Shown here in pieces: positions 59,625 to 59,642 of a stretch of DNA of 64,000 nucleotides (positions are counted from its first letter, which is position 1; every line of letters begins with the position of its first letter). Location of the stretch: assembly GCF_003334385.1 (NCBI RefSeq), contig NZ_QOWN01000003.1. One strand, 5' to 3'. Source of the DNA: Escherichia coli. Its GTDB lineage: Bacteria; Pseudomonadota; Gammaproteobacteria; Enterobacterales; Enterobacteriaceae. The position numbers were made by a program, and so were the translations under genes. A model generated the notes under the pieces. The model searched no databases. It was not told the DNA's origin and saw only the letters and a program-made list of their open reading frames with translations.

Positions 59625-59642
59625 GCACTAGTTCTCTAGTAC
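59625..59642. promoter_or_regulatory. TrpR operator of aroH
   Basis: gcactagttctctagtac (reverse complement GTACTAGAGAACTAGTGC): near-perfect palindrome of the TrpR-box type, upstream of aroH and overlapping the ppsR stop codon. Confidence 0.8.

Follow-up and report, generated by a model that had tools for sequence, protein, structure and literature searches.

The TrpR operator of aroH across the ppsR stop codon of Escherichia coli, and the two promoters of aroH

TrpR operators and the ppsR-aroH junction

The operators of trpEDCBA (trpO), trpR, mtr and aroL serve the same repressor as that of aroH, and share with it the motif ACTAG-N4-CTAGT. trpO and the aroH operator are further alike in acting through occlusion of a core promoter element, although the element differs: trpO lies over a -10 element, whereas the aroH operator lies over a -35 region. 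Two other features set the aroH operator apart from trpO, namely that the upstream gene's coding sequence supplies one of its arms, and that a second promoter downstream appears to escape it. Repression of aroH by TrpR is modest compared with that of trp. The aroH operator work of Zurawski 1981, Grove & Gunsalus 1987, Kumamoto 1987 and Klig 1988 is reportedly consistent with placement over the -35 region, and the bases protected by TrpR are presumably exactly those of the aroH operator. That TrpR represses aroH is documented (PMC5343134, PMC8265036), with regulation confined to a few close Enterobacteriales (PMC5343134). As an element, the aroH operator is already known, and nothing presented here is new on TrpR. 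TrpR binding and repression at aroH are drawn from earlier work, while the position of the site, its similarity to other operators, its conservation, the promoter geometry and the mapped start of the second promoter were observed directly.

A parallel for the overlap with the upstream gene exists at lacI, where O3, like the aroH operator, is the repressor site of a downstream promoter and falls on the final codons of an upstream ORF read in the same direction. In the lac case, binding at O3 leads to truncated lacI mRNA and SsrA tagging (PMC3711431; bioRxiv 10.64898/2026.05.06.723219). There, however, the repressor is itself the product of the upstream gene and the block needs a looped tetramer, whereas ppsR is unrelated to TrpR; nor is a truncated ppsR RNA on record in the Term-seq tables of Adams et al. 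2021, and the aroH/ppsR overlap is dispensable in nature. Among tandem pairs of regulated and constitutive promoters the aroH pair—co-directional, of sigma-70 type and with starts 66 bp apart—is not unusual.

The window analyzed here is a stretch of 64,000 nucleotides of E. coli DNA, of which the part that concerns us, 58400..60500, is 100% identical to E. coli K-12 MG1655 and present in 5,424 of 5,426 complete E. coli genomes. RefSeq gives the gene order on the minus strand as ppsR, aroH and hemP, with selO convergent and ppsA divergent on the plus strand; in its annotation of MG1655, aroH begins 156 nt downstream of ppsR (Table 1). The ppsR product is the PEP synthase regulatory kinase/phosphorylase, and Pfam PF03618 was found on its homologues. 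At its 3' end ppsR reads ...CGA ATG TAC TAG, the last three triplets being Met-Tyr-stop.

Table 1 Features of the ppsR-aroH junction, in window coordinates
Feature	Position	Strand	Basis or remark
ppsR (ydiA)	59636..60469	minus	277 aa, C-terminus ...RRMY; RefSeq annotation of MG1655
ppsR stop codon TAG	59638..59636	minus	within the left operator half-site
Extended palindrome, AATGTACTAG-AGAA-CTAGTGCATT	59645..59622	minus	10-bp arms, 9/10 pairs complementary
Core TrpR operator of aroH, GTACTAGAGAACTAGTGC	59642..59625	minus	two CTAG cores 8 bp apart
aroHp1 extended -10, TGT + TATCAT	59609..59601 (hexamer 59606..59601)	minus	sequence
G+C-rich inverted repeat, GCGAGGTGTGACACACCTCGC	59568..59588	minus	between aroHp1 and aroHp2, +9..+29 of the p1 transcript, without a U-run
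aroHp2 promoter, TTGAAA, 16-nt spacer, TATCGT	59565..59538	minus	promoter scan
aroHp2 transcription start	59530	minus	Kim et al. 2012, PMC3415461, supplementary file 2
aroH	58433..59479	minus	Trp-sensitive DAHP synthase, 348 aa; RefSeq

The palindrome straddles the ppsR stop codon precisely as the initial annotation had described, correct to the base, and the overlap proves to be conserved. Its left half-site consists of the last two ppsR codons and the stop codon (ATG TAC TAG), and the CTAG cores lie at 59628 and 59636. Read on the minus strand, GTACTAG-AGAA-CTAGTGC fits the inverted repeat G-N-ACTAG-N4-CTAGT-N-C; the plus-strand reading of 59625..59642 is GCACTAGTTCTCTAGTAC. The description of the element as a near-perfect palindrome suits only in part the 18-mer, in which 6/9 symmetric pairs are complementary (G.ACTAG....CTAGT.C) around an asymmetric central AGAA, but is apt for the longer 24-bp span.

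Several measures set this site apart within the window. GTACTAGAGAACTAGTGC occurs once at up to 3 mismatches, with 0 occurrences expected, and across the 64 kb, on either strand, it is the sole site within 3 mismatches of the trp operon operator GAACTAGTTAACTAGTAC, to which it is identical at 15/18 positions. None of 100 dinucleotide-preserving shuffles yielded a site this close. The trp promoter/operator/leader reference used here was checked first, giving a 100% match upstream of trpL in E. coli genomes. By comparison with these tests, the looser pattern GNACTAGNNNNCTAGTNC with 2 mismatches allowed has 0.8 expected occurrences, and is uninformative alone. CTAG avoidance is well known in E. 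coli, and the window illustrates it: 9 CTAG tetramers were observed over both strands, vs ~123 expected from dinucleotide shuffles, a 14-fold depletion, and two of the nine are the cores of the aroH operator. Given this avoidance, a CTAG pair 8 bp apart is a strong signal of a TrpR site. A literature search for the operator string returned no match.

Two aroH promoters

A CRISPR-activation study whose targets came from E. coli promoter databases names two aroH promoters, aroHp1 and aroHp2, and gives guide-to-start distances, so both starts could be placed by mapping its guide sequences onto the window. The aroHp1 start, back-calculated from the published guide positions, falls at 59596/59597. 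The operator then spans about -46 to -28 of aroHp1 with its centre near -37, and its right arm stands about 17-20 bp upstream of the -10 element. This spacing recurs in relatives: a TAnnnT -10-like element follows CTAGT at 17-22 nt, mostly 19 nt, in 76/76 operator-bearing sequences of the comparative set described below. The right operator arm would thus double as the -35 region of aroHp1, such that TrpR with tryptophan on the operator would exclude RNA polymerase and turn aroHp1 off. Since the site covers the aroHp1 -35 region and the literature reports TrpR repression of aroH, we identify it with the known aroH operator, and the operator reading offered in the initial annotation is borne out by the pair of cores, the likeness to the trp operator and the position over the putative -35 region. 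We are highly confident that the palindrome is the classical TrpR operator of aroH, through which the upstream aroH promoter is shut by occlusion; its overlap with ppsR probably reflects evolutionary economy. Any effect on ppsR would be a possible side effect of the operator rather than its purpose.

The second promoter rests on a start mapped at NC_000913.2 position 1786408 with 414 reads in M9 glucose (PMC3415461), which corresponds to 59530 in the window. This start gives a 51-nt 5' UTR, lies 8 nt downstream of the aroHp2 -10 element and agrees with the CRISPR-activation guides, which place the aroHp2 start at 59530/59531. It is the sole aroH start in that genome-wide M9 glucose set, from which an aroHp1 start is absent (PMC3415461); for this reason, aroHp1 may be a minor contributor under those conditions. 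Neither aroH nor ppsR, also under its name ydiA, appears in SMRT-Cappable-seq; the Cappable-seq rows listed include no coordinates in the aroH/ppsR region; and the Kim 2012 supplementary data yielded no start-site row for Klebsiella. An aroH transcription start located elsewhere had been foreseen as telling against the operator, and the one start seen in M9 glucose does lie elsewhere, at aroHp2; the operator is nonetheless real, and sits over aroHp1.

The operator lies upstream of the aroHp2 start, with about 104 bp between that start and the operator centre. At this distance TrpR should not occlude aroHp2, so that the operator would govern just one of two tandem promoters, and aroHp2 would, we infer, escape TrpR occlusion. 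The strict aroHp2 pattern is present in 63/83 sequences with an invariant 16-nt spacer, and the promoter extends to Serratia, Erwinia, Pantoea and Yersinia, all of which are without the operator. Judged by this distribution, aroHp2 is phylogenetically older than aroHp1 and also better conserved, a point added by the present analysis. In the mechanism we propose, aroHp2 would supply aroH mRNA regardless of TrpR. Such two-promoter control may help to explain the modest control of aroH by TrpR, and the predicted escape of aroHp2 matters for the engineering of aromatic amino acid flux and for tryptophan sensors built on this region.

Two further observations concern the promoters. In the Citrobacter freundii group (L007-L013 and L016), a deletion of ~30 bp removes the aroHp2 -35 element and shortens the ppsR-aroH gap to 129 nt, vs ~157 nt. 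aroHp2 there reads TGA-TATTGT, an extended -10, which suggests that the extended element compensates for the lost -35 and keeps the second promoter working. Separately, an in-frame ATG at 59600..59602, which would add 41 codons to aroH (389 vs 348 aa), was rejected as its start codon, since it lies inside the aroHp1 -10 element, ahead of either transcription start; the extension is an ORF-calling artefact.

Conservation and alternative readings of the overlap

A scan using one genome per species gave 80 loci with PpsR at least 90% identical, mostly from Enterobacteriaceae; six loci from other genera were added, giving 83 distinct intergenic sequences. aroH follows ppsR by ~130-240 nt in 78 of the 80 loci, and the other two (L033 and L040) carry insertions. 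The pattern ATGTA(C/T)-stop-N4-CTAG(T/C) lies across the ppsR stop in 76/83 of these distinct Enterobacterales sequences. In 75 it takes the strict form ATGTAC-TAR-N4-CTAGT, with TAA as the stop in 60 and TAG in 15; the operator-bearing exception, L036, has the ppsR tail ATG TAT CAA TAA. The operator arms are constant, while the 4-bp spacer and the flanks vary. The operator is present in Escherichia, Citrobacter, Salmonella, Enterobacter, Klebsiella, Kosakonia, Cedecea, Buttiauxella and others. In Serratia, Dickeya, Erwinia, Pantoea and Yersinia there is no right arm and no CTAG, hence no operator. This range, limited to Enterobacteriaceae, agrees with the published account (PMC5343134). RegPrecise likewise lists aroH in the TrpR regulon in 6 genomes of 1 taxonomic group, in agreement with the absence of the operator outside Enterobacteriaceae.

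The genera without an operator are instructive as to how the overlap may have arisen. In Serratia, Dickeya, Erwinia, Pantoea and Yersinia the synteny of ppsA, ppsR and aroH is intact, as is the Met-Tyr/Phe-stop that closes PpsR, and since these outgroups have the tail but no operator, the left arm was probably recruited from ppsR coding sequence as a half-site. On this comparison, the Met-Tyr-stop tail (ATGTACTAA/G) would predate the operator and would already have resembled a TrpR half-site, such that the right arm and the -10 element alone had to arise, presumably in the ancestor of Enterobacteriaceae.

Codon usage, too, shows signs of operator selection on the bases shared with ppsR. Tyr is encoded by TAC in 75/76 operator-bearing sequences, while neighbouring Arg codons vary freely, and the choice of stop codon follows a pattern with the opposite arm: a right arm of CTAGTAC accompanies 0/15 TAG stops vs 52/61 TAA stops (Fisher p 5e-10, a value that ignores phylogeny and reflects roughly three lineages). 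Because the Arg codons adjacent to the ATG vary synonymously, nothing points to constraint farther into ppsR than the ATG, and a further tandem TrpR site reaching into ppsR was rejected on the same grounds. The comparative points, namely the recruited half-site, the trade-off between stop codon and arm, the natural separation of the two genes and the older second promoter, are modest additions and do not amount to a new kind of system. Even so, the aroH operator offers a clean example of a transcription factor half-site apparently recruited from a neighbour's coding tail and stop codon, in which stop-codon choice—rare TAG vs TAA—varies with how well the other half-site is formed.

Nature has separated the two genes in three genomes, where DNA has been inserted between ppsR and aroH: +25 nt in L070, a 361-nt spacer in L033 and 1.6 kb in L040. 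In each, a complete operator lies ~157 nt upstream of aroH, and ppsR ends elsewhere with an ordinary stop. The operator, as read from these arrangements, belongs to aroH, the downstream gene. The overlap is evidently dispensable, given that the insertion genomes keep the operator with aroH and a plain stop on ppsR.

These data bear on other ways of reading the palindrome. Were the left arm nothing but the required Met-Tyr-stop and the right arm a coincidence of no regulatory role, one would expect, as is indeed the case, the M-Y/F-stop tail to be conserved even in genera that have no right arm. Yet the right arm is non-coding, and its CTAGT is conserved in 76/83 sequences while spacer and flanks vary; the operator is kept whole when displaced from the stop codon; and the shuffles described above failed, 0/100, to give a site as close to the trp operator. 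This pattern of conservation refutes coincidence or coding constraint as the explanation, and we leave it next to no chance. It is highly improbable, too, that the palindrome is mainly an intrinsic terminator of ppsR whose likeness to a TrpR site is secondary. An RNA hairpin AAUGUACUAG-AGAA-CUAGUGCAUU followed by UUAUUUUUUU would, on that account, end ppsR transcripts; in a consensus scan the palindrome with its T-run is the only terminator-like site in 59300..60900, and the hairpin appears on the ppsR-strand RNA in the minimum-energy fold, at -10.3 kcal/mol. However, the 10-bp stem has only 3 G-C pairs, the U-run begins 3-5 nt past it, and the fold of the region is no more stable than that of shuffled sequence (z = -1.5). 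Across the sequences the hairpin has a median energy of about -7 kcal/mol, and the T-run is found in just 14/83, vs CTAG cores that are nearly invariant; in E. coli the T-run is the aroHp1 spacer, and no 3' end is reported at the palindrome in the Term-seq tables of Adams et al. 2021. With a weak stem, an offset U-run, poor conservation and no Term-seq end, we reject an intrinsic terminator.

More consequential would be a roadblock of the kind known at lacI-O3, in which TrpR, or polymerase at aroHp1, stops transcription of ppsR before its stop codon. The stop-less ppsR mRNA would then attract tmRNA tagging, with loss of PpsR at plentiful tryptophan; conversely, ppsR read-through would supply aroH mRNA independent of TrpR. 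The geometry fits: the operator is co-directional and covers the final ppsR codons, upstream of aroHp1 no space is left in which ppsR could have a terminator, and the stretch between ppsR and aroH holds no further terminator-like site. There is the precedent of lacI mRNA truncated by LacI at O3, with ensuing SsrA tagging (PMC3711431), and coupled transcription-translation complexes can be blocked by DNA-binding proteins (bioRxiv 10.64898/2026.05.06.723219). Against this, ppsR is served by very weak starts, of 8 and 7 reads vs 414 for aroH in M9 glucose (PMC3415461), and their weakness means that transcription continuing from ppsR can contribute little to aroH. In four supplementary files of the Adams et al. 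2021 Term-seq study, neither ppsR nor aroH is given a sense 3' end, although ppsR is weakly expressed. The insertion genomes, with the operator at aroH and a plain stop on ppsR, show the overlap to be dispensable, and outgroup genera keep ppsR without any operator. TrpR, moreover, is a small dimer in fast exchange, and on that account probably a poor roadblock. We therefore regard a roadblock at this site as very unlikely. Very unlikely too is its full extension, in which, as at lac, a Trp-dependent block at the ppsR stop, by TrpR or by poised polymerase, would leave a fraction of ppsR messages stop-less and yield tagged and degraded PpsR, so that the regulator of PEP synthase would respond to whether tryptophan suffices. 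If true, it would tie tryptophan status to the supply of PEP, a substrate of AroH, and would constitute a second natural case of the lacI-O3 type, on a gene unrelated to the repressor.

Occlusion of aroHp1 by TrpR, with the shared bases as an economy, is the reading we retain. The initial annotation had also placed TrpR on the 3' end of the ppsR transcript or ORF and proposed that the arrangement could couple the two genes. A DNA site on the end of the ORF is correct, but TrpR binds DNA and not the transcript. For coupling we found no evidence. That the operator stays with aroH at insertions, that the ppsR starts are weak, that the Term-seq tables of Adams et al. 2021 show no sense ppsR 3' end and that the hairpin makes a poor terminator all tell against an obligatory link, and functional coupling of ppsR and aroH is a matter of speculation.

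Other elements around the aroH leader

The best-conserved part of the intergenic region is 59495..59565 on the minus strand, which runs from aroHp2 into the 5' UTR (TTGAAA...GATTGGTTTATCGTGATGCGCATCACTTCCCGG...), and its conservation extends far past that of the TrpR operator. Both the aroHp2 spacer, GATTGGTT, and bases past the start site are conserved, exceeding the needs of a plain promoter. A perfect 14-bp palindrome, GTGATGCGCATCAC, at 59526..59539 straddles the aroHp2 start. In other genera it reads TGTGATCGCCATCACT, a form that resembles CRP half-sites (TGTGA-N6-TCACT); the palindrome could be the site of an unrecognised regulator or a 5'-terminal RNA hairpin. An Rfam scan of 59300..59800, leader and hairpin included, returned no match at E <= 1.

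Within the aroH 5' UTR, the hairpin CGGCAGTCCTGCCG at 59508..59521 is the sole stem in the RNAalifold consensus. It shows a two-sided change from C-G to U-A in Pantoea and a G-U change in Erwinia, which points to an RNA stem conserved immediately ahead of the ribosome-binding site. The G+C-rich repeat GCGAGGTGTGACACACCTCGC between the two promoters is common to Escherichia, Salmonella and some Citrobacter only, being poorly conserved elsewhere; Serratia and Erwinia have terminator-like hairpins after ppsR where this repeat sits in E. coli.

Two observations lie farther afield. A well-supported Term-seq 3' end antisense to ppsR (score 24585; Adams et al. 2021), at genome position 1787648 on the minus strand, maps to 60216..60276, and is placed at 60276, on the plus strand of the window. 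Finally, the 1.6-kb insertion of Kosakonia sacchari (L040, 3335..4945), situated between ppsR and the aroH operator, has GTACTAA on either flank. Its opposite strand encodes two small Gly-rich ORFs, one beginning MKELTAHEMQYASGG... and the other MKQLSNDEMQAVSGAG..., which look like double-glycine-leader microcins or bacteriocins.
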